From NCBI GenBank assembly GCA_977020255.1, contig CDROCS010000562.1, positions 310,001 through 374,000 of the forward strand: a stretch of DNA of 64,000 nt, in the 5' to 3' direction. The translations under genes were made by a program, and so were the position numbers. Shown one piece after another: positions 3,270 through 21,754 of the stretch; positions within the stretch are counted from its first letter, which is position 1, and every line of letters begins with the position of its first letter. This DNA is from Obrimoposthia wandeli. Its lineage: Eukaryota. A model generated the notes under the pieces. It worked only from the letters and a program-made list of their open reading frames with translations. It was not told the DNA's origin and did not search any database.

Positions 3270-3383
3270 ATAAAAACGCCTATAGAAATTTTAGACAGTT
3301 CAAGCGAAAGCGGAGATAATGATGTAGCTGAAGCTTGGAACAAGACATCCACACCAGAACCGTACGTAGCTGAATTACAAGAC

Positions 3384-6300
3384 ATGAATTTAGAAAATGA
3401 GTTGACAACTCCAGTGGTCGAGGTGCCACCAGAACCAGATATAATTCAAATCAGACAAGATGAAGTCACGGATACAGCTAATCAAGCGAGACAAAACGAA
3501 AACGTAACCCAACTAGTAGGAGAAGACGAAATCTCCGAAATTGTAGATTTAGATTCACCAATTTGGCATGCTGCATACAAAGATAGACAAGCAGAGCAGA
3601 TGATGCGACAAAATGAAGAGATTGGCCATGAAGAAGGACCAAGTCAAGAGATACAGTATAATGATGAACCGTATGATCCAGGAGAGAATCAAACTGAGTA
3701 TCAGTATTTTCGAAGAGGACCTGGAAGACCTAGAAAGGACGGAAGTATATTACGAAATGTTCTAACTGCACCACAAACTGATGAAGAGAGACATCTAAGC
3801 ATTGGACAGTTAGCAGCGTCATTAGAGCAGTATAGTGCAGAGAGGAATGAAGATATCAGAGGTGATATGAATTCAGAAGCTCCAAGTAGTAAAGATATAC
3901 TTACGGGAATTCTCAGGCAAGTGAAGCCGAAGTTGTTCAAAATGTACAGAGATGAAACAACCGATATAACAGACAATTTGACTAAAGCAGTTAGATCACA
4001 GATGTCTGCAGTAAAGAGAATGACCGCGAATCATGTATACCATGCATCGATAGATAGATTTTACGACGGTGAAGTTTTAGCGCGATTATGTGGAAACCAG
4101 ACTACAAATAAAAAGTTAATTACAGCAATCACATATCTATGTTTCCAATTGACGGAACGAACGAGCCAACCTCACGAAGTCAAACAAGGAATAAATGAAG
4201 CAATGTATCTGATCGAGAATGTATTACAGAGACGAATTGACGAAAACGGAGGTTGGGCAAAATTAAGTGACTACGCTAAAACCATTGTGGAAATGAATGA
4301 AGACGATGACGAACAATGTCATGAGAATCGTCAAAGAGAAAATAAACAATACCGTCCGAAAGAGAGAAACAATCAACCAAATATGTCCACAACAATGATG
4401 ATGATGATGTTAGTAATGTTCATGGGAATGCAACAGGCATCAGGACTGATAGCATACGACTGTAGCATACCAAAGATGGGACAAAAGTATTCACTGCTTG
4501 ACAGCGAAGACTGTCCAGAATCACAACCGTCAAAACTAGAAGTTAAAGGTGTTGAAAACTACTTTGTGTATCAGGATGTTGATAAAGTACAAGTAGAAGT
4601 GAAAGAATGTTCAATCCATTCAAGTTATCACGAATTCTATTGTGGCCATAGAAGTTTTATGTCGGAAATCACACCTACCACACCGTACAAAGCACATAAG
4701 GTTTTGCCAAGAGATTGCGAAGACGCATTTCGAACAGGAACAATAGAAGTAGACAAGAATTACAAACCTGATGTAAAAATTGGAGTGAGACGATACGAAA
4801 CAGTCACGAGAGTCGGACAACGATGGGCTGATGGATCTTGTGACGGAGGAACAAAAAACGTGCGTGGAACCAAAGTAACCGAGTTAGTAATGGACGTAAC
4901 TTACAAAATCGAATTAAAAACATGGACCGCCAATTTTGATAAAAAGACACAACTAATGATGAAGTATCCAGAATGTAAAATGACAGATACATCTTGTTTT
5001 ACAGGCGAATCCACAATTGTGTATCACGTGAATCCGAAACAATGCTCTTTAGTATTTTTGAAAGAGATTAGCTTTAACAAAATAAAAGGATTCCTGTATA
5101 ATAAAGATGGAGAAGGATTCCTGTATAATAAAGTTGGAAAAGGATTGCTCAATGAAACAAGACCAATTCCAATGACAAAGACACCTACACTGTTAATGGC
5201 AACATCAATAGAAGAAGGATTGATATTTATTAAAAAGAGAAACAAAGCGCGATGTGGAATGACTGTTAGTACTACAAACTATCCTGGAATAGTTTTGTCC
5301 AAAGAAGCAATAGCATTGGCAGAAACCAAGCTAGAACCTAGAGATATGCAGCTACACACGTATTTTAATAATAAAATTGATTTCTATTATCATAAAGGAT
5401 TGATGCAAATGGAACAGTTATATCGGATGATGATCGAAAGAGATTGCCAGCTAAACAAAGAGATCGTAAGAACAAAGTTAGCATTAGCTATTACGAATCC
5501 AGACATGGTAGCACCATTATTACCCTTGGATGAAGGAGTATTTGCTAAAACCATGGGAGAAGTATTGTATACTTACAAGTGTAATAAAGTAGAGGTACAG
5601 TTGAGAAAAACAGATCGATGTACGAGTGAATTGGCAGTAACGTATAATTTAAAAGATCTTTTTGTTGAACCAATCACGAGAATGATACTTCCAAAAGACA
5701 CTCCAACTAAAGAAATCAGCTGCTCTAATATAATGGCACCTGAATATCAGATGACGAATGATCTATGGATAACGTTACCTGATCGAAAGCCAACGAAAAC
5801 CCCAGCGATGATAAAAATGACGAATCTTAAAGGTAAAATGAAATTCGAAGCGGTGGAAAATATGGAGAACGCAGGATTGTACAATGAAAAAGATTTAAAA
5901 GCGGCGTGGAACGAAATAATGTTTCCAGTAAAAAGAGCCAGAGTACTTACGGAGATGGTACATCGAGCATTACCGCCAGGAGCTAGATATGCGAATTTTG
6001 ATATGTTATTATCGCCAAGTCATTTCAAGGAAGCAGCACATCAGACACTTAGAAAGATGTGGGGGAAATTCCTTGTTTTAGGACAACTATTTTCGGGTAT
6101 CATAGGTATTTATGTTATAATTAAATTTGTGCTGGTAATTATAGCCCAGGTGTTGTCTACGTATAGTTTATACAGGATAACCGGAATCACCTGGCAACTT
6201 ATAATTGGATGTTTTCCATTTTTAGCAAAATATCTAATGCACCATCATCACGAGAACGAGTTGCGAGCCCTCAAGAAGGAGCAACATCAAACGAGAACCA

Positions 6301-6986
6301 TGATACGAGACCCAAGAAATTATCGAGACGACAACGACGACGATAACGATAGTCCAGGAGTATATGCAAAGATACCAGGAAAACCAAAGATTCCGTTACC
6401 AGACAAGGAAGAAGTGGCGTTAAACCTATACCCAATGAAGGAACTAAAGGAAGAGAAGGAAAAGTTCAAGAGAGGCATTTTAATGATAAGATGGCCTAAA
6501 GTGAGCTACAGTGAGATTCCACAAGCAGAGGAAAAAGACAAAAAAGATAATTCCAGAAGAATTCTGAAGTCTAGGATATCAAATGAGAATCCAAATGCTC
6601 CACCCCAAGTAGCAGTAACATTGAACGGAAGAGAATATCTTGCCGAAGTTGATACTGGATCCGCAGTATCAGTACTGAGTAAAGAAATCTTGTCATCAAA
6701 AGAATTAAGAGAAGTATGTCCTAGAAAACAGACATTTGTTAACGTAAATGGTACAGATGTAGTGTCGGAAGGAACACTGAAATGTTCATTGAATATCGAT
6801 GGAAGAGCATTGCAGTTAAGTGCTAGAATATTCACAGATTGCGGTAGTCCAGTCATGATTGGGATGGACGTAATAAGAATGTTTGAAGGAATAATTATAC
6901 TACCAAACAACAAGAGTTATAAGAATGACAGTTCAGTGAGAGAGATAAAAATGTTGAGAGGACCTATAGTCGAAAAGAAAAAATAA
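3384..6986 (+). CDS. env: ORF2: acidic N-terminus + AT-hook + Bcl-2-like domain + internal signal peptide + chuvirus-type (class III-like) envelope glycoprotein + TM + retropepsin 1
   Basis: RRGPGRPRK (3711-3737); IDENGGW BH2-like motif (~4236-4256); signal MSTTMMMMMLVMFMGMQQASG then LIAYDC (4446); Cys-spaced ectodomain motifs DGSCDG, RCGMTVSTTNYP, RDCQL, GEVLYTYKC; TM ~6070-6236; protease VDTGSAVS (DTG 6651-6659). Confidence 0.85.
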   Translation: MNLENELTTPVVEVPPEPDIIQIRQDEVTDTANQARQNENVTQLVGEDEISEIVDLDSPIWHAAYKDRQAEQMMRQNEEIGHEEGPSQEIQYNDEPYDPGENQTEYQYFRRGPGRPRKDGSILRNVLTAPQTDEERHLSIGQLAASLEQYSAERNEDIRGDMNSEAPSSKDILTGILRQVKPKLFKMYRDETTDITDNLTKAVRSQMSAVKRMTANHVYHASIDRFYDGEVLARLCGNQTTNKKLITAITYLCFQLTERTSQPHEVKQGINEAMYLIENVLQRRIDENGGWAKLSDYAKTIVEMNEDDDEQCHENRQRENKQYRPKERNNQPNMSTTMMMMMLVMFMGMQQASGLIAYDCSIPKMGQKYSLLDSEDCPESQPSKLEVKGVENYFVYQDVDKVQVEVKECSIHSSYHEFYCGHRSFMSEITPTTPYKAHKVLPRDCEDAFRTGTIEVDKNYKPDVKIGVRRYETVTRVGQRWADGSCDGGTKNVRGTKVTELVMDVTYKIELKTWTANFDKKTQLMMKYPECKMTDTSCFTGESTIVYHVNPKQCSLVFLKEISFNKIKGFLYNKDGEGFLYNKVGKGLLNETRPIPMTKTPTLLMATSIEEGLIFIKKRNKARCGMTVSTTNYPGIVLSKEAIALAETKLEPRDMQLHTYFNNKIDFYYHKGLMQMEQLYRMMIERDCQLNKEIVRTKLALAITNPDMVAPLLPLDEGVFAKTMGEVLYTYKCNKVEVQLRKTDRCTSELAVTYNLKDLFVEPITRMILPKDTPTKEISCSNIMAPEYQMTNDLWITLPDRKPTKTPAMIKMTNLKGKMKFEAVENMENAGLYNEKDLKAAWNEIMFPVKRARVLTEMVHRALPPGARYANFDMLLSPSHFKEAAHQTLRKMWGKFLVLGQLFSGIIGIYVIIKFVLVIIAQVLSTYSLYRITGITWQLIIGCFPFLAKYLMHHHHENELRALKKEQHQTRTMIRDPRNYRDDNDDDNDSPGVYAKIPGKPKIPLPDKEEVALNLYPMKELKEEKEKFKRGILMIRWPKVSYSEIPQAEEKDKKDNSRRILKSRISNENPNAPPQVAVTLNGREYLAEVDTGSAVSVLSKEILSSKELREVCPRKQTFVNVNGTDVVSEGTLKCSLNIDGRALQLSARIFTDCGSPVMIGMDVIRMFEGIIILPNNKSYKNDSSVREIKMLRGPIVEKKK

Positions 6987-6998
6987 ACTACGTTCCGT

Positions 6999-9900
6999 AT
7001 GGGAAATTCGTACCAAGACAAAAAACAGGAAGCGCTAGTAAAGTCGATACTTCACTACAAAAACGTAAACCTCGGACCACAAGAGATGACGAGGAGGAAA
7101 ATAACATATGTGAATCTGTCAGAAAAGGATCCCATGAGATTCGAGAAAAAGAGACGAAATATATTAGAACTGTACTATTCAAAAGAAATGGCACGTAAAA
7201 TGGCAAGATCAGGTTTAGAAATGTTAAACGCGACAAGCAGTTATGGTCATGAGATAGTAGTACGATGCGTATTGTGTAGAGTAAAGTTTAGAGAGTGGGA
7301 AAAGAATGAAAACCCAATGAGACGTCATAAAAGAGATGCACCAAATTGTCCATTTCTTTTGAAACTGAAAACGTCAAACGTACCAGAAATCCAAAAAGGA
7401 AAAGCACCCGATTTCGATTACAGTGACGAGATTCCAAAAGGAGAATCAGCTCTAATAGTAGGCAGAGTAGTAACAAATAGCCGAATTGAAGACATATTCG
7501 AAGTTATGCGAGAAGTGAACGAATGTGACGAACAGTATCGAGAAATAACTTTCGAAGATCCAAGACTTAAAAAATTGGCAAAAAAGGGACTTTTTGCTAT
7601 AAAAAAGGATGGTAAAGACGTAATTAAATGCCACAAGTGTAAAAAAGAACGAATTATCGACAGATATACTCTTGAGCTGCCTAAGAAAATTTTACATCAT
7701 GAATTTTGCGAGTTTTGTATGTTAAAAAACAAAATAAAGCAAAAAGAACAGAAAACCGAATGTATAATCGAATACCAAATCACACGGAAAGAGATCTTGG
7801 CTCAACAGGACACACCGGTAGTGTCATTCGTGAGAAGGTTATATCCAAAAGAAGCAGAAAGAATCAGAGAATTGGTAGAATTAAAAATAAAAACTACGCG
7901 AAACGGATACGGATCGATTTTTGAATTACTGCGAGATAAAGATGACAGTACAATTGAAACAAAAGAGAAAGAGTACATAAATGAACTAGAATACGTACTA
8001 GAAGATCCGGAATGCGCAGTTTGCATGGTCAACAAAATAGAAGTTGCCTTTCTACCATGCGGACATGTAAGAACATGTCGGAGATGTGCGAACGAAATGG
8101 TATCATGTCCAATTTGTCGAAGAATAATAGATCGACAAGTGAGAAACATTAGATTTCACTATCCAAACAAAGGAAGTGGACCGACAGAGTGTAATAATTC
8201 GATAAATACAATATACCATATGGGAAATATAAATGGAGCACAGCGACCAGCAGCTATCATTAGAGTAAATAATTTAAGAGTAAAAGCCTTAATTGATACA
8301 GGTGCTGTAGCTTCGATAGTAAGTGAAGACTGTTTGACAGAAGAACAGAAACGAACAATGGCAGAACCAGATGAATTCTTGGTATCGGTCAATGGAGACC
8401 CTGTTAAAGTGACGGGAATATTACCATGTACATTTATAATTGGACGTAATACGATCACTATACCCGTTAGAATCATGAAAGAATGTCCTGAACCTACAAT
8501 TTTAGGAATGAATGTACTATCTCAACTTAAAGGAATAAGTATTGATTTACAAGATCCAAGATTGAAGGATAGCACATCAAACAGACAAATAAACCAAATT
8601 GATGTAATTATAGAGAATCCTATAAAAATCGGAAAAAGATCACAATTTCTCATTCAAGGTCACACCTTATCAGAAGATAAAGGACCAGTTGTGTTCGAAC
8701 CATCACGAGATTTCATAGAGAAATACGAATTACCAGTTGTAAGTACAGTATGTCTGATTGAAAATCACAAAATACCAGTTAGACTGATGAATACAACCAA
8801 CAATGACATCCTATTATACAGAGGGATGAGGTTTGGAAAGATAGCACAGATGGAGAATCCCACCATGTGTGCTATGAAACTCGATAAAGATACGAATGAT
8901 TACGAAGAAATAGTAATCCAATCAGAAAGACTGACAACTAGAGAAAAGAAACAATTACTTGATCTAATACATAAATTTCCGAAAGTAATTGCAAAAAATC
9001 CATATGACATAGGAGAAACACCTGTCATAAAACATACAATACCACTGACAGAAGACAAAGTAGTCAGAAGAAGACCATATCGAGTACCATTACAGTTACA
9101 AGATGAAGTAAAAAGTCAGATCGAAGATATGTCTAAAACAGGAGTAATTAGACCGAGTTTTTCGCCATTCTCAGCACCTGTGGTGTTGGTAAAAAAGAAG
9201 GATGGGAAAATGAGATTCTGTATAGATTTCAGAGAACTGAACAAGATCACAAGAAAAGATGTGTATCCATTACCTAGAATCGAAGAGATGCTCGATACAT
9301 TGGGTAATTCAGATTTTTTTACAACATTAGATTTGCAGAGTGGATACTGGCAAATCGAGATAGAGGAAGAGGATAAACACAAAACAGCCTTTTCCTGCGG
9401 AGATGGATTATACGAATGCGAAAAGATGCCATTCGGACTGACAGGAGCTCCAGCAACATTTCAGCGTTGCATGAATTTTGTACTCGCATCGTGTGCAAAC
9501 ACGATGGTTTATATCGATGACATAATAATATTTTCGAAAACGTTCGAAGAACATTTAAAAAATCTTGAAGTTGTATTTAAAAGACTGGAAAACGCTAAAT
9601 TAAAAGTTAAACCTACAAAATGCGAATGGGCTAAAGAGCGAGTAACATTTTTAGGACATATAGTATCGAAAGAAGGCATTCGACCTAATCCAGCAAAGAT
9701 CGAGAAAGTAAAAGCGCACTTAGCGCCAAAGACTGTTAAGGAAATACAGAGTTTTTCAGGTCTTGCGAACTATTATAGACGATTTGTTGAACATTTGTCA
9801 GATATAGCAACACCATTGAGAAAGTTGACGAGGAAAGATAAGAAGTTCATATGGGGAGAAGAAGCACAACAAGCGTTCGAGCATTTAAAAGAAAGACTGA

Positions 9901-11666
9901 TAAAAGCACCAATATTAGGGTTTCCAGATATAAATCGAAAATTCATACTAATGACAGATGCAAGTAACTATGCTGTAGGAGCAGTATTGGGACAAGAGGA
10001 TGACGAAGGAAGAGAACACGTCATCGCGTATGCGAGTAGAGGATTAAACAGAGCCGAAAGAGGATACTCTGTTATCGAAAAGGAATGTCTAGCCATAGTG
10101 TATTCATGTAGACAGTACAGACACTATTTGCTAGGACAAAAAGTATTCCTGTATACAGATCACAAACCACTACAGTTCTTATATAAACATAGAGATGAGA
10201 TGAGTAGATTAAACAGATGGTTTCTAAAATTGGCCGAATTCGATCTAGAAATCCGTTATAGAACCGGAAAGTCGAACGGCAACGCAGATTGTTTGTCGAG
10301 ATTGACAAATGTAGACGAGAAAGGAAACATAATTCCAGAAGAAGATGAAACCAATGACCAAAAAGGAGAAGCAAATCTACTGACGATTTTGCTAAAGACG
10401 GGTAAAATAGACAAAGAGATCATCAAAGAACAGAAAGAAGATGAAGAACTGAGTCTAATCAAAGAATTGTTGGTGAATGGAGACCTAAACGATGAAATGA
10501 CGAAAAAATACTCGATAAAAGAAGGAATCTTGTATATTGTCAATAATGTCGGAAAGATAGTAGTAGTAATTCCGAAGTCATTGAAAACAGCAGTGATGAT
10601 CCAGTATCACGATGGAACACTAGGAGGACATCTGTCAGGGCGAAAGACAATAGCCAGAATCAAAGAGAAGTACCATTGGGATGGTATGGAAGACGACATA
10701 AAACAATGGTGTAAACAATGTAAAGTATGTTTAACCAGAAAAGACACCGGAACTCGTACTAAAGTTCCACTGAAACCAATGCCAGTTCCCTTGGCACCAA
10801 TGGAATTCACAGCGATGGATATATTGGGATCATTGAGAGAATCAAGTAAAGGAAACAAGTACGTCATAGTATTTACGGACTACATGACGAGATGGGTAGA
10901 AGCATATCCCATGCAAAACCAGAAAGCTGAAACAATAGCGCAAATCTTAGTGGAAGAGATAATATTTCGATACGGAGTGCCTAGAAAGTTGTTAACGGAT
11001 CAAGGTAAGAACTTCACTGGAGAAGTCATAAAAGCAGTATCGAAGATATTCGGAATCATGAAGTTACAAACTTCACCATATCACCCACAAACAGATGGTC
11101 TAGTAGAAAGGTTTAATAAAACTTTATGTATGATGGTACAATCCTATTGCTCAGACAAGCAAGAGGATTGGGATAAATATTTACCTTCATGTTTATATGC
11201 TTACAGGAATTCAGTTCGAGAGGCGACGGGTCACACACCATTCTATCTGATGTATCTCAGACAGAACAATATGCCGATGGATCTGGAGTGGACCCAGCCA
11301 ACATCTCAGTATCTAGAAACTGAACAATACATTGTCGTCATGAAGGAAAGATTACAAGATGCTTGGACCAAAGCCGGATTGAAGTTGAAATTCAATCAAG
11401 AAGGTTACAAGGAACAATACGACAAAAAAGCAAAACCACATGAATTTAGAGTCGGAGATCAAGTGATGATATTTTATCCAGTCATCGAACCAGGTCTATC
11501 GTTTAAACTGCATAGACCATACAAAGGACCATACAAGGTGATCCAAACAACCTCAACAAATTTGAAAGTAATCAACGAAGAGAATCGGAACAAGGAACCG
11601 ATGATTGTACATGCAAATCGATGTAAATTAGTACCAAATAAAGATAACACGTCACGATATGAGTAA
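6999..11666 (+). CDS. pol: ORF3: IAP module (BIR, degenerate BIR, RING) fused to Pol (retropepsin 2, dUTPase-like spacer, RT, RNase H, integrase)
   Basis: BIR C-x2-C-x16-H-x6-C at 7266-7349; RING CAVC..PCGH..C..C..CPICR at 8013-8132; LIDTGA (8295); RT LDLQSGYWQ, MPFGL, YIDD (9510-9521); RNase H TDAS..GAVL, TDHKPL; integrase H..GH..C..C, MDILG, TDQG, ERFNKTL, GPY. Confidence 0.95.
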   Translation: MGNSYQDKKQEALVKSILHYKNVNLGPQEMTRRKITYVNLSEKDPMRFEKKRRNILELYYSKEMARKMARSGLEMLNATSSYGHEIVVRCVLCRVKFREWEKNENPMRRHKRDAPNCPFLLKLKTSNVPEIQKGKAPDFDYSDEIPKGESALIVGRVVTNSRIEDIFEVMREVNECDEQYREITFEDPRLKKLAKKGLFAIKKDGKDVIKCHKCKKERIIDRYTLELPKKILHHEFCEFCMLKNKIKQKEQKTECIIEYQITRKEILAQQDTPVVSFVRRLYPKEAERIRELVELKIKTTRNGYGSIFELLRDKDDSTIETKEKEYINELEYVLEDPECAVCMVNKIEVAFLPCGHVRTCRRCANEMVSCPICRRIIDRQVRNIRFHYPNKGSGPTECNNSINTIYHMGNINGAQRPAAIIRVNNLRVKALIDTGAVASIVSEDCLTEEQKRTMAEPDEFLVSVNGDPVKVTGILPCTFIIGRNTITIPVRIMKECPEPTILGMNVLSQLKGISIDLQDPRLKDSTSNRQINQIDVIIENPIKIGKRSQFLIQGHTLSEDKGPVVFEPSRDFIEKYELPVVSTVCLIENHKIPVRLMNTTNNDILLYRGMRFGKIAQMENPTMCAMKLDKDTNDYEEIVIQSERLTTREKKQLLDLIHKFPKVIAKNPYDIGETPVIKHTIPLTEDKVVRRRPYRVPLQLQDEVKSQIEDMSKTGVIRPSFSPFSAPVVLVKKKDGKMRFCIDFRELNKITRKDVYPLPRIEEMLDTLGNSDFFTTLDLQSGYWQIEIEEEDKHKTAFSCGDGLYECEKMPFGLTGAPATFQRCMNFVLASCANTMVYIDDIIIFSKTFEEHLKNLEVVFKRLENAKLKVKPTKCEWAKERVTFLGHIVSKEGIRPNPAKIEKVKAHLAPKTVKEIQSFSGLANYYRRFVEHLSDIATPLRKLTRKDKKFIWGEEAQQAFEHLKERLIKAPILGFPDINRKFILMTDASNYAVGAVLGQEDDEGREHVIAYASRGLNRAERGYSVIEKECLAIVYSCRQYRHYLLGQKVFLYTDHKPLQFLYKHRDEMSRLNRWFLKLAEFDLEIRYRTGKSNGNADCLSRLTNVDEKGNIIPEEDETNDQKGEANLLTILLKTGKIDKEIIKEQKEDEELSLIKELLVNGDLNDEMTKKYSIKEGILYIVNNVGKIVVVIPKSLKTAVMIQYHDGTLGGHLSGRKTIARIKEKYHWDGMEDDIKQWCKQCKVCLTRKDTGTRTKVPLKPMPVPLAPMEFTAMDILGSLRESSKGNKYVIVFTDYMTRWVEAYPMQNQKAETIAQILVEEIIFRYGVPRKLLTDQGKNFTGEVIKAVSKIFGIMKLQTSPYHPQTDGLVERFNKTLCMMVQSYCSDKQEDWDKYLPSCLYAYRNSVREATGHTPFYLMYLRQNNMPMDLEWTQPTSQYLETEQYIVVMKERLQDAWTKAGLKLKFNQEGYKEQYDKKAKPHEFRVGDQVMIFYPVIEPGLSFKLHRPYKGPYKVIQTTSTNLKVINEENRNKEPMIVHANRCKLVPNKDNTSRYE

Positions 11667-11714
11667 AGATCACAGAAATCGAAGCCGAATACCAATACCA
11701 TTAAACTTACACGA

Positions 11715-14700
11715 ATGGTAAGTGATCGGAACTACATAAACATGATGACGAGTGGTAGCGAGGAAAAACCAGCGAGAATTGGTATGCTCAGAATGAAGCA
11801 CCAAGAGGAAAAGGAAGTAATCCGACACATCGCACCACAAGAGATATTAGAAGAAGATGAAGAGATAATAGTTGTTTTCGAAAAAACACAACCAACAGAT
11901 GTGGCTAAAGAAGTCATTGTGAAAGATGCACTGACAAACGAATTTCTGTGCGAACTTAGAGTGTCATACTACGACGGAAATACATTAGTCGCAGCACTAT
12001 ATCAAAACTCCAATGTGTTTACGACTGAGAAAGTGATAATCGAAATCACATTGACACCAAACATAGTTGCATGGCAGAACTATGACAGTACTGAAGCAGG
12101 ACTAGCCAGTCAGGAAGAGAAGGAACCGGCCGGTGGTCACATACTGCATGGTACACCAAAAAGACTCAAACAAGAATACCACGATGTAATAATGGTATTA
12201 CGTAATTCACATGGGAAAAGAGATATCATGAGAGTTCATTTAATCGACGCAGACACCGAAAAGATAATTTGTCAGATGGACACCAAATATTTTGACGGAA
12301 AGACAATTGTATGTTGTATACCAGAATCTCACCGGTTAGACACAGATCAAACGGAAGTATCTGTAAGGTTGAGTGTAATAGAAGGATTTCATTCGCCAAA
12401 CCAACCGGAAGTGGCTAACAATAAAATCATCAAAGCAACGGCAGAGTTACGCATTGACAGTGGATACCGGAAGTGGGAAGCTAAAAATAAAAAACCACAA
12501 AGAATCAATATGATCCGAGAACAAGTGACCAACTCAATCCAGCCAAAATATCATGCTGAAATAGTATCATCCGCGCCAAGTGTGATTACATCGATAAACG
12601 ACGAAATTATAATTTTACTAAAAAATCGATGGCCGTCATCAACCGAGATACGAGTAAATTTAATTAATTATGCGAAAACACCGATATCTAAGCTGAATGT
12701 TATCTATTTTGATGGATTGTCCATCATGGGTAAATTGGAAACAATTGTCATGTGCTATGGAGCACAGTTCCAAGTTGAGATACTTAAAGATAGCGTAATA
12801 CCGTATCCGATTCACAAATACGAAGGGGAAATCAATCCAATTATTCTAACCCCTTCATTAATTTCAGTTCAGACAGACATACCAGAATACCCTTCGAGCG
12901 AGTCTAGTCAAGACAGCGAACCAGAAAGTAACGATACAGAATCAACAGAATCCGAAGATAACATGATAGAGCGATTCGGAAAAACCATGGAGGTTGAATT
13001 CGCTAAAGAGAGCAGAAAAAGACAAAACATAGAATTCGTGAAACAGAATATACAAGAAAGACGAATTAAATCTGCAGAAGAGACCGAGTCGGAAGAAGAC
13101 TCAACAAAGGAACAGACATCAGAGACAAAGATGAATATCTCTCCAGCAATACGAATGCTGAGAGGGAAGAAACTGGCAAAACTATCCAACATCGACGAAC
13201 AGATAGAGAAGAGATTAGAAAGACTAAAACTTGAAGAGTCAGAATTATTGCCACCAATGAGCGAGATCATTCCAGATAAGTTATACCTCGGAAATGTGGA
13301 AGATGCAACAGATGAAAAGAAACTGTTGGAACAAGGGATAACATACGTGATCAACGTTACAATGAATCACAAATCGCAATATCAGACAATCAGAGCTATG
13401 ACATTAGGATTAAAAGACTCAATGGACGCTAATCTTCTCGAATGGTTCGTAGAAACAAACGAAATACTTCACAGAGAACTCCGAAACCAAGGAAAAGTGT
13501 TGGTACATTGTCAGAAAGGAATTTCTCGATCAGCAACTCTAGTATTAGCATATCTAATAAAGACTAGACGAATGCAGGTACTAGAAGCGCTAAAATACCT
13601 ACAGGAGAGAAGAAGTATTGCAAACCCAAATCTTAATTTTTTGGGACATTTGGCAAATTACCAACTTCTGTTGCAAGAACAAAGACGGATGGACGACATT
13701 CCTGAGGATCCAAAGGAAAAGAATTTCCTCCAAGCATTATCGTTGACCGGGTTATTCTTAGCCGGAGTCGACAAAATTACACAGATAATGCCAAAAGTAT
13801 TTTTATGTCATCCGGGAGATATAGATACTGCTGGATTAAAGTTCCACAGTATCAACCGAGTAATCAACATTGTTGAAGTCGGAAACGAGATAATTAGTCT
13901 GTGTCAAAATACTGAAGACGACACCACTCGATACATACATGCTTCTAATCGAGAGATAAACGATGCACAACAACATCTGACGAAATTGACTCAAACCATC
14001 CAAGCCGAAGTCACAGAAGGAAACGGCGTTCTGATATATCAGAAAAAAGGTACGATGTTAGCGCCTACCATAGGTGTATCCTTGTTGGTAGAGTACCATG
14101 GTCACACGCCAGAAGAAGCGATGGTCTACATCAAACAGAATAGACCAGATACGGAATTCAAACCGTTACTCGTTCGAGAAATAGAGAAGTACGCCGAAAA
14201 GAGGAAACAGCAACGAGAAACAAATGAAGCTACAACAACAGTGCCCAGCTTTCAATACCAAAGATTGCTAGCGATAGGCTTGTTAAGTTGTCTAATGCCG
14301 ATAACGGGAGCACAAGAGATAGGCTCCAACCACGGAAATAGTTCCTGGTTCAACGAAATCCACAACTACACCATACAGTACCATACGCAGGCACTGATGA
14401 TGCTATTAGTGTTGTTAGGATTAATTGATGTATGGATCATCCGAAAATGTCTCCAATCTATGAGAACCGACAGTAAAAGATTTCAGTTTGTAAAGATGAA
14501 AAGACCAAATGGACCAACGAACAAAGTGCTTGTGTATCTAGACGAAAGGATCGAGGACAACATAGTAAATGAAGCGATATTTTACCCACAAAACAGAATA
14601 CTGAATCAATTCCGAATAGATTACGAAGCTGACCGACAGCGCACACTTGACCGAATATCAACAACATTCGCCGGATGCAAGCGAAGAAAACGAATTGTAA

Positions 14701-16928
14701 AGGAAATACAAAAAGATGCTGATACAAAAGGACCGACGTATATATTCGACGGCGATGTCATCAAAACACGTGAGTATGGAAGTAAGAGAGTGATAATAGA
14801 AACGATGGAAGGACATAAAACATGCTTGTCCGCTAAAAATGGATTCGGAAAGTTGATGATACAAGGTAAACAGGTACAGTTGATTATCGGAAGAAATGGA
14901 ATCGAGGAGATGTCAAAACAACGACAGACAACAAAACGATCCAATCAGAAACAGATATCTCTCAAACGATTGATAATTAAAACCCTTTGCAAAAGGTCAG
15001 TCAAGGCCCTGTGCACCGTTGCACAAGGATTGATCTACGGAGTAGTAATTGGATTAGTACTACAAGCCATGCCAACCAGTAAAGCTGAAATGATGACATT
15101 ATACGAGTATAATCTACATTTGAGAAATCTAGACAACACCCTCGAAATAATCAAGACGTCCCACAGTAAAGCCGTAAGGATCATGTGTGTAAAAGGATGT
15201 CCAGGACGAATGTGTATAGTTCCAGCGACCGAAATGAAAACACTTAATGGACATTATGGAGTTAGTATTGTCACATGTGAAGACTACACATTTGGACAAA
15301 CTAAAATAGTACTTCTCAGTGACATGTCCAACCAAAGTGCACACAAATTTAAAATATTAACCATCAAGAGTAAAGGAATACCAGCAGTACGTTATGGTAT
15401 TCTAGAATTGGTTAATCCAATACTCGCACTGATCATTGGATTCATAATATTAATATTACTCATCTTGTTTTGTTGTACAAAGATAGAGTTGAGATCAAAA
15501 AAGAAACGTCATGATCTCGCAAGACGAACAGGTCAAATGAATTTACAAAAATTCAACACAAGTATACCAAGACCACCATTTCTAGATGAACCAGCACCGG
15601 AGTACCAGCCAACGATATATGAACATATCGAGGAAAGACCGTACTATATGAGTAATCTGAGTTGTTTCATTGAAATTCCTGAGTTTAGGAATCGAACGAT
15701 CATAGGAATCATGCTGATCATACAAATTACCACTACCAAGGCTAGTTATGAAATCATGATCAGTAAATGGAGACAAGATGTAATACGGGCGTTATACATA
15801 GAAATCCCTCTATTAAAAACAAATCACGTAGTAGACATTCATCTACAGACGTCAGCAACCGACAATATCGATCAGAAATTGTATGTCATCCGACAGGTCA
15901 GAATAAAGATCGACAAAAGTACACCCGATTACAACTTAATATTATTCTATCATGAAAGAGTGTTATACCTACGGATAACGATATCAAAAAGGAAGCGGAT
16001 TATCCAAAGTATCCGAACAAAGTCATTAATATTGCCTAGAGATGAGCGCATCTGGAAAATTGTCGACAGGATTATGATCACAGGTAGACGACGTAAAGCC
16101 GTATGGAATTCCGTTAGAATATTTTTCAGATTACTAGAAACTGACAAAGTAACAGTATCGTGTCCCAATCCAGATGGCGGAATCAGATTCGAAATCCAAA
16201 ACCAAATGTTAGTACCACATTTTGATACAGAATGTCTGTGTAATCGAATTCCCAGTAACACTACAGAGACCTCAACCATAATCATGGTAATAACAGGTGA
16301 AATATTCTACATAACTCTAAGATACCAGAACCGTCGATTTCGTAGATCCGGTATAAGTATCAAACCCAGGAAAATCATTCCCAAAAAACCAATCCTAGTC
16401 AAAAAGAAGGCAAAGATAAACGAAAGTAAACCCCATTCCAAAAAGCCGAACGTGATCAGAACAAAGACAGAAGCGAAAGAAAAAGAGCTAAATTCCAGAA
16501 ACCAAAGTACAGTTATTAAGAGGACAAGAGTGAGGGGAACGATCCCACTAGATCCCAAACATCATTTCCAATCCAAAATAATAATACCTGTTCTACCAGA
16601 AACAAAACACCCAAATCCACGAATTTTTAGAAAATCGGACATAATACATGGAAACCGATCAAAACCCATGGAAATGTCATTCGAACCGACAAACAACAAA
16701 ATGAAGTATGATTATCAATCATCAGATAGCGGAGTAACAGCGGTCAATGCTCTAATTGGAATGGCCGTAGTGTCAACAGCAGTGGTTCTATTGACAATCG
16801 TGTGCGTGAAAGGCAGTCAAGTATGCCCAAGAATACGACGAAAATGCGAAGGATTGCGATGCTGTGACAAACCCACCATGGAGGAAGTGGAATTGCGACC
16901 CTTACCTCCGCCTCCCATCAAGATATGA
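11715..16928 (+). CDS. ORF4: accessory polyprotein with 3x IPT/TIG-like repeats, dual-specificity phosphatase, inactive phosphatase copy, and several signal-peptide/TM modules
   Basis: Three ~80-aa repeats with a Y(Y/F)DG core; DUSP IIPDKLYLGN...VLVHCQKGISRSAT (HC at 13506); second DUSP-like domain with VLIYQKKGTMLAP; six hydrophobic segments; ends TGA TAA. Confidence 0.85.
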   Translation: MVSDRNYINMMTSGSEEKPARIGMLRMKHQEEKEVIRHIAPQEILEEDEEIIVVFEKTQPTDVAKEVIVKDALTNEFLCELRVSYYDGNTLVAALYQNSNVFTTEKVIIEITLTPNIVAWQNYDSTEAGLASQEEKEPAGGHILHGTPKRLKQEYHDVIMVLRNSHGKRDIMRVHLIDADTEKIICQMDTKYFDGKTIVCCIPESHRLDTDQTEVSVRLSVIEGFHSPNQPEVANNKIIKATAELRIDSGYRKWEAKNKKPQRINMIREQVTNSIQPKYHAEIVSSAPSVITSINDEIIILLKNRWPSSTEIRVNLINYAKTPISKLNVIYFDGLSIMGKLETIVMCYGAQFQVEILKDSVIPYPIHKYEGEINPIILTPSLISVQTDIPEYPSSESSQDSEPESNDTESTESEDNMIERFGKTMEVEFAKESRKRQNIEFVKQNIQERRIKSAEETESEEDSTKEQTSETKMNISPAIRMLRGKKLAKLSNIDEQIEKRLERLKLEESELLPPMSEIIPDKLYLGNVEDATDEKKLLEQGITYVINVTMNHKSQYQTIRAMTLGLKDSMDANLLEWFVETNEILHRELRNQGKVLVHCQKGISRSATLVLAYLIKTRRMQVLEALKYLQERRSIANPNLNFLGHLANYQLLLQEQRRMDDIPEDPKEKNFLQALSLTGLFLAGVDKITQIMPKVFLCHPGDIDTAGLKFHSINRVINIVEVGNEIISLCQNTEDDTTRYIHASNREINDAQQHLTKLTQTIQAEVTEGNGVLIYQKKGTMLAPTIGVSLLVEYHGHTPEEAMVYIKQNRPDTEFKPLLVREIEKYAEKRKQQRETNEATTTVPSFQYQRLLAIGLLSCLMPITGAQEIGSNHGNSSWFNEIHNYTIQYHTQALMMLLVLLGLIDVWIIRKCLQSMRTDSKRFQFVKMKRPNGPTNKVLVYLDERIEDNIVNEAIFYPQNRILNQFRIDYEADRQRTLDRISTTFAGCKRRKRIVKEIQKDADTKGPTYIFDGDVIKTREYGSKRVIIETMEGHKTCLSAKNGFGKLMIQGKQVQLIIGRNGIEEMSKQRQTTKRSNQKQISLKRLIIKTLCKRSVKALCTVAQGLIYGVVIGLVLQAMPTSKAEMMTLYEYNLHLRNLDNTLEIIKTSHSKAVRIMCVKGCPGRMCIVPATEMKTLNGHYGVSIVTCEDYTFGQTKIVLLSDMSNQSAHKFKILTIKSKGIPAVRYGILELVNPILALIIGFIILILLILFCCTKIELRSKKKRHDLARRTGQMNLQKFNTSIPRPPFLDEPAPEYQPTIYEHIEERPYYMSNLSCFIEIPEFRNRTIIGIMLIIQITTTKASYEIMISKWRQDVIRALYIEIPLLKTNHVVDIHLQTSATDNIDQKLYVIRQVRIKIDKSTPDYNLILFYHERVLYLRITISKRKRIIQSIRTKSLILPRDERIWKIVDRIMITGRRRKAVWNSVRIFFRLLETDKVTVSCPNPDGGIRFEIQNQMLVPHFDTECLCNRIPSNTTETSTIIMVITGEIFYITLRYQNRRFRRSGISIKPRKIIPKKPILVKKKAKINESKPHSKKPNVIRTKTEAKEKELNSRNQSTVIKRTRVRGTIPLDPKHHFQSKIIIPVLPETKHPNPRIFRKSDIIHGNRSKPMEMSFEPTNNKMKYDYQSSDSGVTAVNALIGMAVVSTAVVLLTIVCVKGSQVCPRIRRKCEGLRCCDKPTMEEVELRPLPPPPIKI

Positions 16929-17050: not shown

Positions 17051-17350
17051 ATGTCCGAAGAATGCCCAATATGTTTGGAAGATCTAACCGAACGAAGAAC
17101 AAGACCCGAAACCTGCAACCATTTACACCACGAGGAATGTTTATCGACATGGATCAGAACTTATGGACAGTTCGGACATCCAACATACCCTTGTTGCCCT
17201 GTATGCAGAAGACAATTCGCAAGATTCATCATGTTAGAACCCAACCAAGAGGATGTATATGTACAGGTGGTATTCTGTTGGAAGAATTTCGGAGAGTGTT
17301 GGTGTTACTACTGTTTGTCAGAACGACAAAATCCGACCACTTTTGTGTAA
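17051..17350 (+). CDS. Small RING-H2 protein 1 (putative E3 ligase) with C-terminal Cys motif
   Basis: CPIC...CNHLHHEEC...CPVC gives C3H2C3; tail CWKNFGECWCYYC. Confidence 0.85.
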   Translation: MSEECPICLEDLTERRTRPETCNHLHHEECLSTWIRTYGQFGHPTYPCCPVCRRQFARFIMLEPNQEDVYVQVVFCWKNFGECWCYYCLSERQNPTTFV

Positions 17351-17410
17351 ACATCACACAATCACCAGTCCTCAATCGAGCCCAAATTCAACATCAACCC
17401 TCTCACAGTA

Positions 17411-17716
17411 ATGTCTGGAGAATGTTCCATCTGCTACGAGAGCATCGTGGACTTCTACACCAAGCCCAACAACTGCGACCACCTCTTCCACATCGAATGC
17501 CTCGAGACGTGGATTCCCATCGCCAACAGCAACAATCCCCTCGACTTCCCAACCTGCCCGATGTGCAGAGCGACCTTCTCAGTGCACTACGTGTACAACC
17601 AGGACAGCCTCCAAGCAGTGGTACCCATAGTACACTGCTGGAAAACTATCTGCGATTGCTGGTGCTCGTTCTGCGTGGAGGAGCGACGCACAGGCCAGCC
17701 CAATTCCCAGCAATAA
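17411..17716 (+). CDS. Small RING-H2 protein 2 (paralog of RING 1)
   Basis: CSIC...CDHLFHIEC...CPMC; tail CWKTICDCWCSFC; collinear with RING 1. Confidence 0.85.
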   Translation: MSGECSICYESIVDFYTKPNNCDHLFHIECLETWIPIANSNNPLDFPTCPMCRATFSVHYVYNQDSLQAVVPIVHCWKTICDCWCSFCVEERRTGQPNSQQ

Positions 17717-18067
17717 TCGAAGGTAACTTTCTGACTTTGAACGTGACATCATGAACTACCCTGTGTATTGCATACCGCGATAAATTAGCTACCATAATTG
17801 TAATCATAATTGTATAATCTTGTGAAACTGTAAAATGACCATTACCATTTTTATGTATGTTGTTTAACTGAAATTGTAATTATTATACTGAAATTCTAAA
17901 AGACAATTTTTATGCCTAGTGTGAATGTGTAAACATGCCTAAAATCAGAACAAAACTCGGTAGGATTAAAAAACTAAAGGTTCATTTTGAAACTAAAATT
18001 TTAACCTTATAAATTAACGACGAAAACAGTTGAACCCCAAGTTGAAAGGAATCATTTTCTTGTGCAG

Positions 18068-18598
18068 ATGAAGTGTTCAGTATGCAGGGAGAAAATTTGG
18101 ACGGGATCGGCATCCCCTGTCGGCTGCCGTCACAAATTCCACGAGTCGTGCCTCTATTTGTGGGCCAAGGCTCGACCCCCAGGCCAAATCACATGCCCAT
18201 TGTGCCGGGCACCCTTTTGCAAGTGGACGCTCCAGTGCCGTGGACGATCCAAGGGCACCCGATCACCTGCCAGTTGCATTGGTGGCATACACTGCCAGTG
18301 CTACGTGTGTCTCGCACGCCGTCGCGACACACAATTGGGCATCCGCGAGCGATGGCGGTCTAGCCGCGACTGCCATTCATGGTTCCAGGCCAGACGCTTA
18401 TGGATGGAGAACCATGCGCTGAACGGGCAATATTTTGACCTATTTGTCGAGAGCCCGCACCTGACCCGGAGCCAGCAACTACACCTCTACAACGGGGACA
18501 GTCCGTCCTTTCCAGACCTACCCCTGGAGCAGGTCATGCGTTACCTAACTAGTCGGAACCAGCCGACAATTACAATCGATCTTACTAACGACAATTGA
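18068..18598 (+). CDS. RING-H2 protein 3 (diverged paralog with longer C-terminus)
   Basis: ATG at 18068; CSVC...CRHKFHESC...CPLC; tail CIGGIHCQCYVC. Confidence 0.8.
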   Translation: MKCSVCREKIWTGSASPVGCRHKFHESCLYLWAKARPPGQITCPLCRAPFCKWTLQCRGRSKGTRSPASCIGGIHCQCYVCLARRRDTQLGIRERWRSSRDCHSWFQARRLWMENHALNGQYFDLFVESPHLTRSQQLHLYNGDSPSFPDLPLEQVMRYLTSRNQPTITIDLTNDN

Positions 18599-19324
18599 TA
18601 ACATTACATTCTTTCCTCCCTTCTTTCCTTCCTAATTCCTTACTTATCTATGTAGCCATTTTGTGTATAAGTAATAAATTAGTGAATATTTGAGACTCTG
18701 TCCAAATGTTCACTTTTTTAGAAAAAACCGAGTTTCTTTTAAAAGTTTTGGGCATGTTTGATGAATTGAATGACTGATTTTGTAGGGATGGACCTAAAAT
18801 CAACAGCCAGAGGCTTATAAGAGTAAAATCGATACGTTCCGGGGACGTAACTTTTTTGGAACCCCCGAGATATGTTAGATTTAGGAATTGAGAAATTATT
18901 AAAAAAATTAAATAATTTATACTAAAATAAAATCCTTGAAAGCAAGGTTGAAAATTAAATATTTAAAATTAAGTTAAAATATTAGAGGATAAAATCAGGG
19001 GTAAATATTAATAGGACCACGAAGGTCGTGTGTAGTGTGTCGTATATATAGGTTAAGATTATTAATACAAAAGTGCAAAATAAGAATAAGACTTAATTAG
19101 GGGAAACTAAGAAGAAAAATCAAGAAAGAAATTAATCAAGGAAAGAAGAAATTATCGTTTAATTTTCCACCTGCCAAATTGTTTCGGCGCAGCACTCGTT
19201 ATATCGACTATTGTGTTTTCAGCTGTCTAGGATCGACAGTAGCGCTCGAGCCTAAGAGGAAAAAAGTAATTAGATTAAATCTATAAATTTTACTTAATTG
19301 CTTAGCAGCTGATTTTATATCGAC

Positions 19325-19404
19325 TATATAAGTCGCCCCAATCAATTGTCAGAAAAAGAAAGGATTCTAGCCGAGACACACACAGCGGAAAAGAGCTGGT
19401 AAGC
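19325..19404 (+). promoter_or_regulatory. TATA-like box and downstream 5' splice donor in the putative LTR
   Basis: TATATAA at 19325-19331; CTG|GTAAGC with GT at 19399-19400. Confidence 0.45.
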
Positions 19405-19487
19405 GTGTCTAATTTGAGTTAGATTAATTCCGGCATTTTTATAGAAATCTGAAATTTACCAATCCTGAAATATTTACCCATCCTGCC

Positions 19488-19883
19488 ATCAATTTGAATC
19501 CAGTATTATCAATTTGAATCCAGTATTATCAATTTGAATCCAGTATTATCAATTTGAATCCAGTATTATCAATTTGAATCCAGTATTATCAATTTGAATC
19601 CAGTATTATCAATTTGAATCCAGTATTATCAATTTGAATCCAGTATTATCAATTTGAATCCAGTATTATCAATTTGAATCCAGTATTATCAATTTGAATC
19701 CAGTATTATCAATTTGAATCCAGTATTATCAATTTGAATCCAGTATTATCAATTTGAATCCAGTATTATCAATTTGATCCAGTATTCTCAATTTGAATCC
19801 AGTATTATCAATTTGAATCCAGTATACTCAACTGCATCCAGTATACTCAACTGCATCCAGTACGCTCAGCTGAATCCAGTTTG
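19488..19883 (+). repeat. 20-bp tandem array (~20 units) inside the LTR
   Basis: atcaatttgaatccagtatt x14 perfect (19488-19767), then progressively diverged units. Confidence 0.98.
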
Positions 19884-19957
19884 CTCTACCGATCCCGCGC
19901 CAGCCGATCTCGAGACTAGAAAACGTAAGAGAGATTAGTAGGGCCAAGAGTTGAGGG

Positions 19958-20483
19958 TTACCCATTTTCTGATTTACATTAATTTTGGAAAAATTGAAAG
20001 TTACCCATTTTTGATTTACATTAATTTTGGAAGAATTGAAAGTTACCCATTTTTTGATTTACATTAATTTTGGATAAAATTGAATTACCCATTTTCCGAG
20101 TTACATTAATTCCGGATAACATTGAATTAACCATTTTCTGATTTACATTAATTTTGGATAAAATTGAATTACCCATTTTCCGAGTTACATTAATTCCGGA
20201 TAACATTGAATTAACCATTTTCTGATTTACATTAATTTTGGATAAAATTGAATTACCCATTTTCCGAGTTACATTAATTTCGGATAACATTGAATTAACC
20301 ATTTTCTGATTTACATTAATTTTGGATAACATTGAATTACCCATTTTCTGAGTTACATTAATTTCGGATAACATTGAATTAACCATTTTCTGATTTACAT
20401 TAATTTTGGATAACATTGAATTACCCATTTTCTGATTTACATTAATTTTGGATAAAATTGAATTGCCCATTTTTTGATTTACA
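19958..20483 (+). repeat. 42-bp tandem array (~12.5 units) with partial 84-bp higher-order structure
   Basis: Variants ttaaccattttctgatttacattaattttggataaaattgaa and ttacccattttccgagttacattaattccggataacattgaa alternate. Confidence 0.97.
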
Positions 20484-20745
20484 ATAATTATTGATATAAA
20501 GATAAAAGTTTACCCTCCAAGTAGTAAAGTTGACATTAAAGTTAAATTGATTGAAAAAGCTATAACTTGAGCTTATTCGCGAGTTAGAGGAACGACTCTA
20601 AAAAACTCGACTAACTTTACATAAAATCGATACGTGGTTCATCCCCACTTTTTGTAGAGACTTACAGAAGTCTTAGGAATTTTTACTATACTTTTTAGAA
20701 AATACGTACATAAACGTATTGTTGTGTTCAGTTTAGTGTGCTACC

Positions 20746-20751
20746 AATAAA
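20746..20751 (+). terminator. Polyadenylation signal in the putative LTR
   Basis: AATAAA ~150 bp before the inferred LTR end. Confidence 0.4.
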
Positions 20752-20904
20752 CGATTTCCTACATTAGAACACGTTGTTTTTAAACCCTTCAGATTAAGAG
20801 ACGTCAAACCAAACACCTTCAGATAAGAAAAAGAGATAACACTAAACCATAACACTAAGTAGGCCACGACCAACTTTAAGACCTGCTTCTATTCGAACTC
20901 ACGT

Positions 20905-20916
20905 TGGGGCTCTCCG
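20905..20916 (+). promoter_or_regulatory. Degenerate primer-binding site (tRNA-Pro-like)
   Basis: TGGGGCTCTCCG resembles TGGGGGCTCGTCCG, the complement of the tRNA-Pro 3' end; it directly follows the inferred LTR end. Confidence 0.5.
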
Positions 20917-21049
20917 CACATAAGAGGATCTATACAAGTCTCGTATAGAAACCCCAACAAAATAATTAAGAGAGAATAAGATATATAAAAACAGAATTGA
21001 ATTAAGAATACGATAAGTAATAAGTGAATTAATACGGGAATAAGTAAAT

Positions 21050-21454
21050 TGATATAAAGAGTTCGTAAAATAATAAATTGAGTAATCAAAATATAAAATA
21101 TTAAAAAGTAATAAGTAAATTGAAGTTGTTGAGATATAAGTGAATACATAATTGACAAGATAGTGGATAATCATTGAGAACCCGCATTTAATACTAGAAG
21201 ACAGAGTCGAGATGATCAGATTCCTCGAGTAAATAAAGATGTTACATAAGTATTTCAAGTCGAAGATGTTGAAGAAACAGTATCTGAAAGATACATTAAT
21301 TATTTGACGAAGTAAATCAAGTAGATATCCAGGAAAGATTGAAGAAGCTAATTTGAACGATATTGAAGACATAATTGAGGAAAATGTGGCTAACGCAGCT
21401 ATGAATGTGGAATAGTTAGTGCAAGCATTGAATGTGATGTTGAGATCCAATTTT
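21050..21454 (+). pseudogene. Decayed copy of the leader and gag 5' end from a related element
   Basis: Homologous to ~455-955: PAFNTRRQS vs PAYNTRRQS; MNVE*LVQALNVMLRSNF vs MNAEQLAQAINATLRPNF; contains stops and indels. Confidence 0.85.
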
Positions 21455-21754
21455 ACATAATAATATAAGATAAGAATGTAGGTTTTTGTTCTGTCGCCAT
21501 GCCGCTGAATCGTCCCTTTATACTACTAGTAGGAAATTTAATGAAAAAAATTGATCGATTAAATAAGAAATTCGGAGAAGAGCCTCATGATTTGATGGTT
21601 ATCCTAGCAAATAAACTATTATAATATCCCAATGAATATCAACTTTACGAAAGTTTAGTCAAATTCGAGGAAAAGTGAGTTTATTTTGGAAATTCCACAA
21701 GACAATTCGATGCTTTAAATGAGAGGAAACACCTTCAGCTGTACCAAAGAATTA

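Follow-up and report, generated by a model that had tools for sequence, protein, structure and literature searches.

A dual-specificity phosphatase and an adjoining pseudophosphatase in a giant Burro-like Ty3/gypsy element

The window analyzed here, a stretch of 64,000 nucleotides of Obrimoposthia wandeli DNA, contains a giant env-bearing Ty3/gypsy element that carries two tandem domains of the dual-specificity phosphatase (DUSP) family behind its integrase. The first domain (D1) is a predicted active atypical DUSP, whereas the second (D2) is, as judged from its sequence, a true member of the same family that is catalytically dead. The loss of catalysis in D2 is a fixed, family-wide state, and D2 is under purifying selection, its constraint in a small sample of variant sites being no weaker than that of the surrounding sequence. 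Our searches found no report of a signaling phosphatase as cargo of a Burro-like LTR element, and we regard this cargo, including the selected pseudoenzyme, as probably new; the anti-death cargo of giant gypsy elements was already known. These observations suggest that the element tunes host-cell signaling as large DNA viruses do.

Anatomy of the element and place of the phosphatase pair

The carrier is a ~20-kb Ty3/gypsy element with the order Gag, ubiquitin-like domain (Ubl), Bcl-2-like stretch, Env, protease (PR), BIR, RING, PR, reverse transcriptase (RT), RNase H (RH) and integrase (IN), followed by a further long open reading frame, ORF4. The order PR-RT-RH-IN with Gag upstream is that of Ty3/gypsy elements. 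The window begins inside the 5' untranslated region, and the 5' LTR lies outside the window. The features identified are the following.

846..3269, + strand: Gag with Arg/Ser/Asn/Asp-rich repeats and a CCHC knuckle (zf-CCHC, 7.8e-06); first segment of a single frame
2991-3143, + strand: weak ubiquitin-like domain in the Gag ORF (Pfam E 0.0042, below the cut-off)
3384..6986, + strand: ORF with the Bcl-2-like stretch, a class III fusion glycoprotein Env (Monjiviricetes_fusion, 2.1e-95) and the first aspartyl protease (Asp_protease_2, 4.2e-05)
4068-4256, + strand: Bcl-2-like stretch that immediately precedes Env and contains a BH2-like motif (Pfam E 0.031, below the cut-off), in the position reported for Burro
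6999..11666, + strand: IAP-like BIR and RING (BIR, 4.7e-09; zf-C3HC4_3, 1.6e-11), second protease, RT (RVT_1, 1.5e-37), RNase H (RT_RNaseH, 8.4e-39) and integrase (rve, 1.1e-11)
11715..16928, + strand: ORF4 of 1,737 codons, which carries the phosphatase pair, in frame with Pol after one stop
11799..12869, + strand: three diverged ~110-aa repeats, possibly IPT/TIG Ig-like (a lead only, from comparison within the protein and the Atlas)
13257..13679, + strand: D1, putative atypical DUSP in which the Asp (13416-13418) and the HCxxGxxRS loop (13506-13532) are intact
13770..14204, + strand: D2, predicted DSP-fold pseudophosphatase that has lost the catalytic Asp, Cys and Arg (loop at 14034-14060) and is under purifying selection
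14265..14441, + strand: signal-peptide-like segment (recognized by eye, no predictor), short N-glycosylatable stretch and first transmembrane helix (hydropathy, sequons)
17051..17350, + strand: small RING-H2 ORF 1 (zf-RING_2, 2.9e-09)
17411..17716, + strand: small RING-H2 ORF 2 (zf-RING_2, 1e-08)
18068..18598, + strand: small RING-H2 ORF 3 (zf-RING_2, 2e-07)
18873..20901, + strand: candidate 3' LTR with 20-bp and 42-bp tandem arrays (by eye; boundaries tentative)

The two aspartyl proteases (6609-6872 and 8259-8525) flank the BIR-RING region, and several relatives likewise have at least two proteases, some of them after the integrase. The three RING-H2 ORFs occupy 17051-18598, where the GC content exceeds that of the remaining element; ORFs 1 and 2 are paralogues, each ending in a Cys-rich tail. 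The untranslated region and the candidate LTR contain tandem arrays with units of 49, 111, 20 and 42 bp, at 1-454, 19408-19847 and 19959-20588. Right after the candidate 3' LTR, positions 20900-21460 hold a decayed copy (64-76% identity) of the element's 5' untranslated region and Gag start, which suggests that the element inserted at an older relative or recombined with it.

The earlier note placed the phosphatase pair at 13257-14192. This interval proved to be residues 515-830 of the 1,737-codon forward frame 11715-16928, and the methionine at 13257 (residue 515) is internal to this frame rather than a gene start. A stand-alone two-domain gene is thus ruled out, and so is a host DUSP gene adjoining an insertion, since the pair is intronless, in frame with Pol and present at the copy level of a repeat. 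ORF4 consists of the three ~110-aa repeats, an acidic and coiled stretch, D1, D2, the signal-like segment and four transmembrane helices located by hydropathy, the last three at aa 1098-1116, 1236-1254 and 1680-1698. From this layout, in which the signal-like segment and the helices come after D2, both D1 and D2 would face the cytosol, and the phosphatase part as a whole (TIG-DUSP-pseudoDUSP) is predicted to be cytosolic and closed by the segment at 14265-14441.

The second half of ORF4 (14265-16925), with its alternating signal-like segments, short ectodomains and four transmembrane helices, resembles a series of small membrane proteins, and one of its segments has a weak match to poxvirus 2L_N (E 0.002). 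As for the repeats at 11799-12869, comparison within the protein relates R1 to R2 at E 1e-07 and detects R3 at E 0.003-0.009. Their Atlas score for TIG/IPT is 0.88 and so misses the 0.9 bar, with 10 of the 10 best matches in the same family; neither a Pfam match nor PDB support for TIG was obtained.

All four long ORFs (846-16928) share one frame, which three stops interrupt, one each at codons 808, 2047 and 3607 of 5,361 (window positions 3267, 6984 and 11664). Among the closest Pol relatives examined, 16 of 17 continue in frame for 195-1,358 residues beyond the position of this copy's post-integrase stop, and in three relatives (L002, L004 and L006) Env, protease and Pol lie in one frame. 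The shared frame and the in-frame extensions of the relatives most likely place the phosphatase pair in the C-terminal extension of one giant polyprotein of 5,360 codons, which the element probably encodes. Both private damage to this copy and a family-wide separation of ORFs fit the three stops: the 5 to 9 near-private sites observed within 1,701 bases correspond to an expected 2.0 to 3.7 stops for the whole frame, in agreement with the three present, but all three lie near domain borders with an ATG after each, which suits separate ORFs. Given these in-frame stops, the copy in the window may be inactive.

We term the element Burro-like because it was likened to Burro by plan and size and not by Burro sequence. 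The giant Ty3/gypsy elements Burro and GYPSM1 of planarians share with it a Gag with CCHC, Ubl and Bcl-2-like domains, an Env between Gag and Pol, BIR and RING, the PR-RT-RH-IN order, a single frame of ~5,000 codons and many copies; the accessible part of the Burro description gives an ORF1 of 4,873-5,140 aa with Ubi, BCL2, Env, PR, BIR and RING domains (PMC6431247). In the window, an in-frame Env, Ubl, Bcl-2-like stretch, BIR, RING and an ORF1 of this length were all found, with sub-threshold scores for Ubl and Bcl-2 and with three stops in the frame. The two elements differ in their remaining cargo. Ankyrin repeats or a MATH domain are found in Burro, whereas the four ORFs of the window have no Pfam match to either and possess instead TIG-like repeats, the DUSP and pseudo-DUSP, four transmembrane helices and, downstream, three small RING-H2 ORFs. 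Burro resides in a planarian host and exceeds 30 kb with its LTRs, and no phosphatase is named in the accessible part of its description (PMC6431247).

In an RT tree built without Burro sequences, the window element and 15 relatives form a clade of 16 of the 44 rows (SH-aLRT 99). The closest relatives have ankyrins or a DEDD exonuclease in place of the DUSP. Ankyrins were found in the clade relatives P0136, P0157, L001 and L003, in the last two within the Pol extension; a DEDD exonuclease ORF and several ORFs without Pfam matches lie downstream of Pol in related Gag-Env-Pol elements (L001:9043-10371, L002:10617-12104, L003:8592-9920, L004:12085-13470). According to the accessible text of a survey of GAG-ENV-POL elements, these are known from nematodes, bryozoans and flatworms, and errantiviruses of this type with an HSV/gB-type env resemble the window element in having Env before Pol and a class III fusogen, but the window element has far more cargo; the words 'phosphatase' and 'DSPc' are absent from the main text and seven text supplements of that survey (PMC13524379).

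Catalytic residues and fold of the two domains

The motifs previously noticed in D1 are present in one frame, namely the loop HCQKGISRS (13506-13532), the general-acid Asp in LKDS (ORF4 aa 568), AYL and PNLNF. ORF4 as a whole matches Pfam DSPc at E 3.8e-39 in two stretches, and a profile of 24 DUSP homologues detects D1 at E 9e-58. At E<=0.001, D1 matches 77 distinct PDB sequences, the best of which is the catalytic domain of DUSP10/MKP5 (E 2.2e-23). Both HCQKGISRS and Asp568 align with MKP5, giving D1 the full Asp/Cys/Arg set; the two hallmarks of DSPc named in the accessible text of PMC13577060, the HCxxGxxR(S/T) P-loop and the general-acid Asp, are thus present. In an alignment-guided AlphaFold model, D1 has pLDDT mostly of 80-96 and TM-scores of 0.88-0.91 to human DUSPs, superposing on human DUSP5, DUSP1 and DUSP4 with an RMSD of 1.3-1.5 A over ~140 residues at ~33-38% structural identity.

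The designation of D1 as MAPK-phosphatase-like, if taken to mean membership of that group, was not borne out. MAPK phosphatases (MKPs) are defined, in the accessible part of PMC6227380, by an N-terminal non-catalytic domain with a kinase interaction motif (KIM). D1 resembles the catalytic domain of both MKPs (DUSP10/MKP5, DUSP1/2/4/5) and atypical DUSPs (DUSP14/18/22), but it lacks the rhodanese/KIM domain that MKPs carry at their own N-terminus: Pfam detected none in ORF4 at E<=0.1, and D-motif-like strings are fewer than expected by chance (two, against a mean of 3.4 in shuffled sequences). In a tree of 45 rows, D1 falls within a polytomy of 41 rows, outside the four-row MKP clade (95/92), the bootstrap of this tree being not fully settled. 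DUSP14-type matches score as high as MKPs, with 94.6 bits for a cnidarian DUSP14 and 96.5 bits for MKP5. Because it has no rhodanese/KIM domain and lies in this polytomy, D1 is best called an atypical DUSP, its sequence displaying no MKP-specific feature; the proposed targets JNK, p38 and STAT are conjectural.

The sequence features reported for D2 were also recovered, with ITQIMPKVFL at 13776 and the loop IYQKKGTML (14034-14060) containing neither Cys nor Arg. When D2 is compared alone, it matches Pfam DSPc at E 1e-06 and 29 bits, just below the cut-off of 33.5, and the profile of 24 DUSP homologues at E 8.5e-16 over nearly the full domain; its first ESM Atlas match is DSPc at 0.93, with 173 shared features. 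In the profile alignment the Asp, Cys and Arg positions are filled by Asn, Gln and Leu, and D2 therefore lacks all three catalytic residues, one more than had been noted before. AlphaFold, guided by 19 mostly tandem DUSP rows, yielded the DUSP topology in both halves with a mean pLDDT of 78, and the single-sequence model of the pair had a pLDDT of 39. The pTM of the guided D1-D2 model is 0.52, with pLDDT <50 in the linker and the D-loop region of D2, and the relative orientation of the two domains is not set by the model. Since the guiding alignment consisted of DUSPs, the model is a consistency test only.

D2 could be a duplicate of D1 or stem from a separate capture. The two domains have 21% identity, the D2 branch has a length of 3.8-4.1 changes per column where the median is 0.55, and D1 is absent from the 13 best matches of D2 in the 45-domain set. 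Only four matches to D2 at E<=0.001 exist among 1.84 billion representatives, all of them active-type DUSPs with intact loops. In the Atlas, most of its neighbors are DUSP clusters from giant viruses, but this does not prove transfer.

In the STYX-type trap for phosphorylated substrates, the P-loop Arg and the Asp are kept and only the Cys is lost. D2 does not follow this pattern, having lost the Arg and Asp positions too. The suggestion of the earlier note that D2 is a substrate trap in this sense is thus unlikely: D2 lacks the phosphate-binding Arg, its D-loop region is modeled with low confidence, and a docking or stabilizing role suits a domain without this Arg better than trapping. What stands of the proposed combination of an enzyme and a pseudophosphatase is the pairing, with a full catalytic set in D1 and a dead D2; the trap role does not.

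Dead loop and selective constraint across copies

Words of ORF4 were found in five sequencing runs, four from one sample (0.91-0.92 of the words) and a fifth, a marine metagenome, from a second study (0.17). Four runs were compared over positions 12900-14600, namely X1, X3 and X4 of the first sample and X5 of the second study. In each first-sample run, between 47,591 and 55,347 contig pieces align here and ~140 places vary at >=3%, as would be expected of a repeat family of very large size, although depth gives no copy number. No RNA run carrying ORF4 was among the matches listed.

The sole variant shown in the D2 loop is synonymous. All changes of the kind required to create an Arg at the loop position are placed elsewhere in all four runs, so that no variant at >=3% has this Arg. 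A 295-base X5 contig spans the D2 loop with seven differences, five of which are shown elsewhere; too few remain for a Cys codon in the loop, and an Arg is likewise absent. Another X5 contig shows no difference across the Cys-to-Arg stretch of D1. A one-base deletion in the A-run of the D2 loop, at ~5-7% of depth, represents decayed copies or error, and deletions spanning D2 were seen only in single low-depth contigs. With the dead loop in all variants at >=3% and in the second-study contig, copy-specific decay of D2 is ruled out, and the check across copies that had been proposed earlier supports a dead domain for all subfamilies at or above 3%.

Of 164 variant sites, the 40 best-supported were shown, which makes a small and possibly biased sample for the selection test. 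Synonymous changes account for 9 of the 12 shown variants in D2, against 33% expected (P=0.004), and for 5 of 11 in D1 (P=0.33, not significant). If only sites with a share of 0.05-0.90 are counted, the fractions are 7/9 in D2 (P=0.008) and 5/9 in D1 (P=0.17). Since its variants are mostly synonymous, D2 is constrained and not decaying. The whole 1.7-kb stretch has 25 of 39 synonymous variants, one X5-only row having been dropped.

Kindred phosphatases and the proposed role of the pair

DUSPs in virus-like elements of animals are represented by poxvirus VH1, baculovirus PTP-2 and the giant-virus DUSPs. However, these are single-domain genes of large DNA viruses, whereas here two domains, one of them dead, belong to the probable polyprotein of a retroelement. 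The viral parallel drawn previously holds in spirit, the carrier being an env-bearing, provirus-like retroelement. The fold matches in BFVD are DUSPs of Nucleocytoviricota, and the poxvirus and baculovirus enzymes rank under cellular DUSPs (Z ~18 vs 23.6). Chains that combine a catalytic with a non-catalytic PTP-fold domain are also known from Cdc14, which has a dead A domain and an active B domain, and from the D1-D2 receptor PTPs; STYX is likewise a pseudophosphatase. The active-then-dead order of the window domains is that of receptor PTPs and opposite to that of Cdc14, and both window domains are of the small DUSP type. Comparison with the packing of Cdc14 and receptor PTPs gave single-domain or high-RMSD alignments only, that with Cdc14 extending over one domain.

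The DUSP profile, which detected both window domains as a control, matched neither the ORFs found in 80 related loci nor 13 related Pol proteins; most of these loci are short contigs and may end without reaching such cargo. No element-borne DUSP was present among the best 120 of 127 longer matches or the best 120 of 483 similar-length matches, and scans of IMG/VR gave no match. Three fish proteins with DSPc and a transposon domain (P0009, P0119 and P0004) were rejected, since the transposon part is a LINE-type RT or a DDE domain and gene-model fusion seems the likely origin. A published report joining an LTR element and a DUSP was not found; the Burro annotations (Grohme 2018, Lee 2026) could hold one.

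With belief and doubt in about equal measure, we propose that the pair is cargo of a Burro-like element in which D1 acts on a host signaling protein and D2 is its non-catalytic docking or stabilizing partner, alongside the anti-death modules. The pair would be made within the C-terminal extension of the Pol polyprotein and then either be freed by the element's protease or remain tethered to the membrane via the following hydrophobic segment, facing the cytosol. D1 would dephosphorylate a host signaling protein, and D2, folded and kept by selection, would provide a docking or stabilizing surface in place of the KIM domain absent from D1, a logic that may be that of the Cdc14 A domain or the receptor-PTP D2. 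Acting alongside the Bcl-2-like and BIR-RING modules and those of the three RING-H2 ORFs, the pair may damp host stress and death signaling, JNK/p38-type kinases being the likeliest class of target, and the element-making cells would survive. A precedent for working anti-death cargo is B-IAP of Burro1, which is reported to protect the stem cells of planarians (Lee et al. 2026, as cited in the accessible text of PMC13465017), and a precedent for the phosphatase is the action of poxviral DUSPs on STAT1 (PMC13577060).

The target of D1 might also be found among the element's own proteins, Arg/Ser-rich Gag or Pol, on which it would act in particle assembly or maturation with D2 docking. Gag aa 266-395 contain 29 Arg, 18 Ser and eight SR/RS dipeptides in 130 residues, the in-frame place behind the integrase would make the phosphatase stoichiometric with particle proteins, and vaccinia offers a parallel in VH1, a packaged enzyme with virion proteins as substrates. 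However, a DUSP is missing from close relatives built on the same Gag-Env-PR-Pol plan and is thus dispensable for the element cycle, and the remaining cargo (Bcl-2-like, IAP, RING-H2) points to the host; we therefore think a target within the particle rather unlikely. Another explanation, which we rate as simply unlikely, accepts a functional D1 but takes D2 for the remnant of a duplication or of a second capture, retained solely because a domain in a polyprotein has to stay folded and having no binding role. The very long branch of D2, its low identity to D1 and its few matches, all of the active type, agree with this, and the synonymous excess is not special to D2 because the whole 1.7-kb stretch shows it. 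Nevertheless, a useless domain of 145 residues could be lost in frame, and the rare deletions across D2 described above do not exceed single low-depth contigs; moreover, the fold-defining motifs of D2 have outlived a long divergence.

The three repeats directly upstream of the pair allow a further possibility, that they form one unit with the phosphatase against Rel/NF-kB, NFAT or STAT factors, the repeats mimicking an Ig-like dimerization domain and D1 dephosphorylating the captured factor or its kinase. Their Atlas likeness to TIG/IPT would suit such a unit, as would the action of poxviral DUSPs, which dephosphorylate STAT1 according to the accessible text of PMC13577060. We consider it improbable, as the TIG score stays below the bar with no Pfam or PDB support and the Atlas clusters of the repeats are generic protist and rotifer TIG proteins, not Rel domains.

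The docking-partner proposal can be extended to an infectious enveloped retrotransposon lineage with a poxvirus-like host-control kit, composed of the Bcl-2-like and IAP modules, three RING-H2 ligases, TIG-like repeats and the active and dead DUSPs. In it, the dead domain would be a new specificity module aiming D1 at a host kinase or transcription factor, and the copies would be enough to reshape stress signaling. This extended version is possible but doubtful. Apoptosis and ubiquitin modules were already known in giant gypsy elements, and the DUSP widens this cargo to phospho-signaling, control of which has so far been linked to large DNA viruses. D2 offers a natural, selected pseudoenzyme with a role testable on a 320-residue fragment, and its very many copies are a ready-made mutational scan of which D2 surfaces matter. 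The Burro-like architecture is also extended to a host whose DNA occurs in a marine sample.

The element is embedded in flanks of ~30% GC. A single-exon gene for a secretin-family 7TM receptor (7tm_2) lies at 23355-25001, and the host side of the window further contains a pogo-like DDE transposase remnant (47433-48329) and, on the minus strand, M13 peptidase exons (57343-61849).
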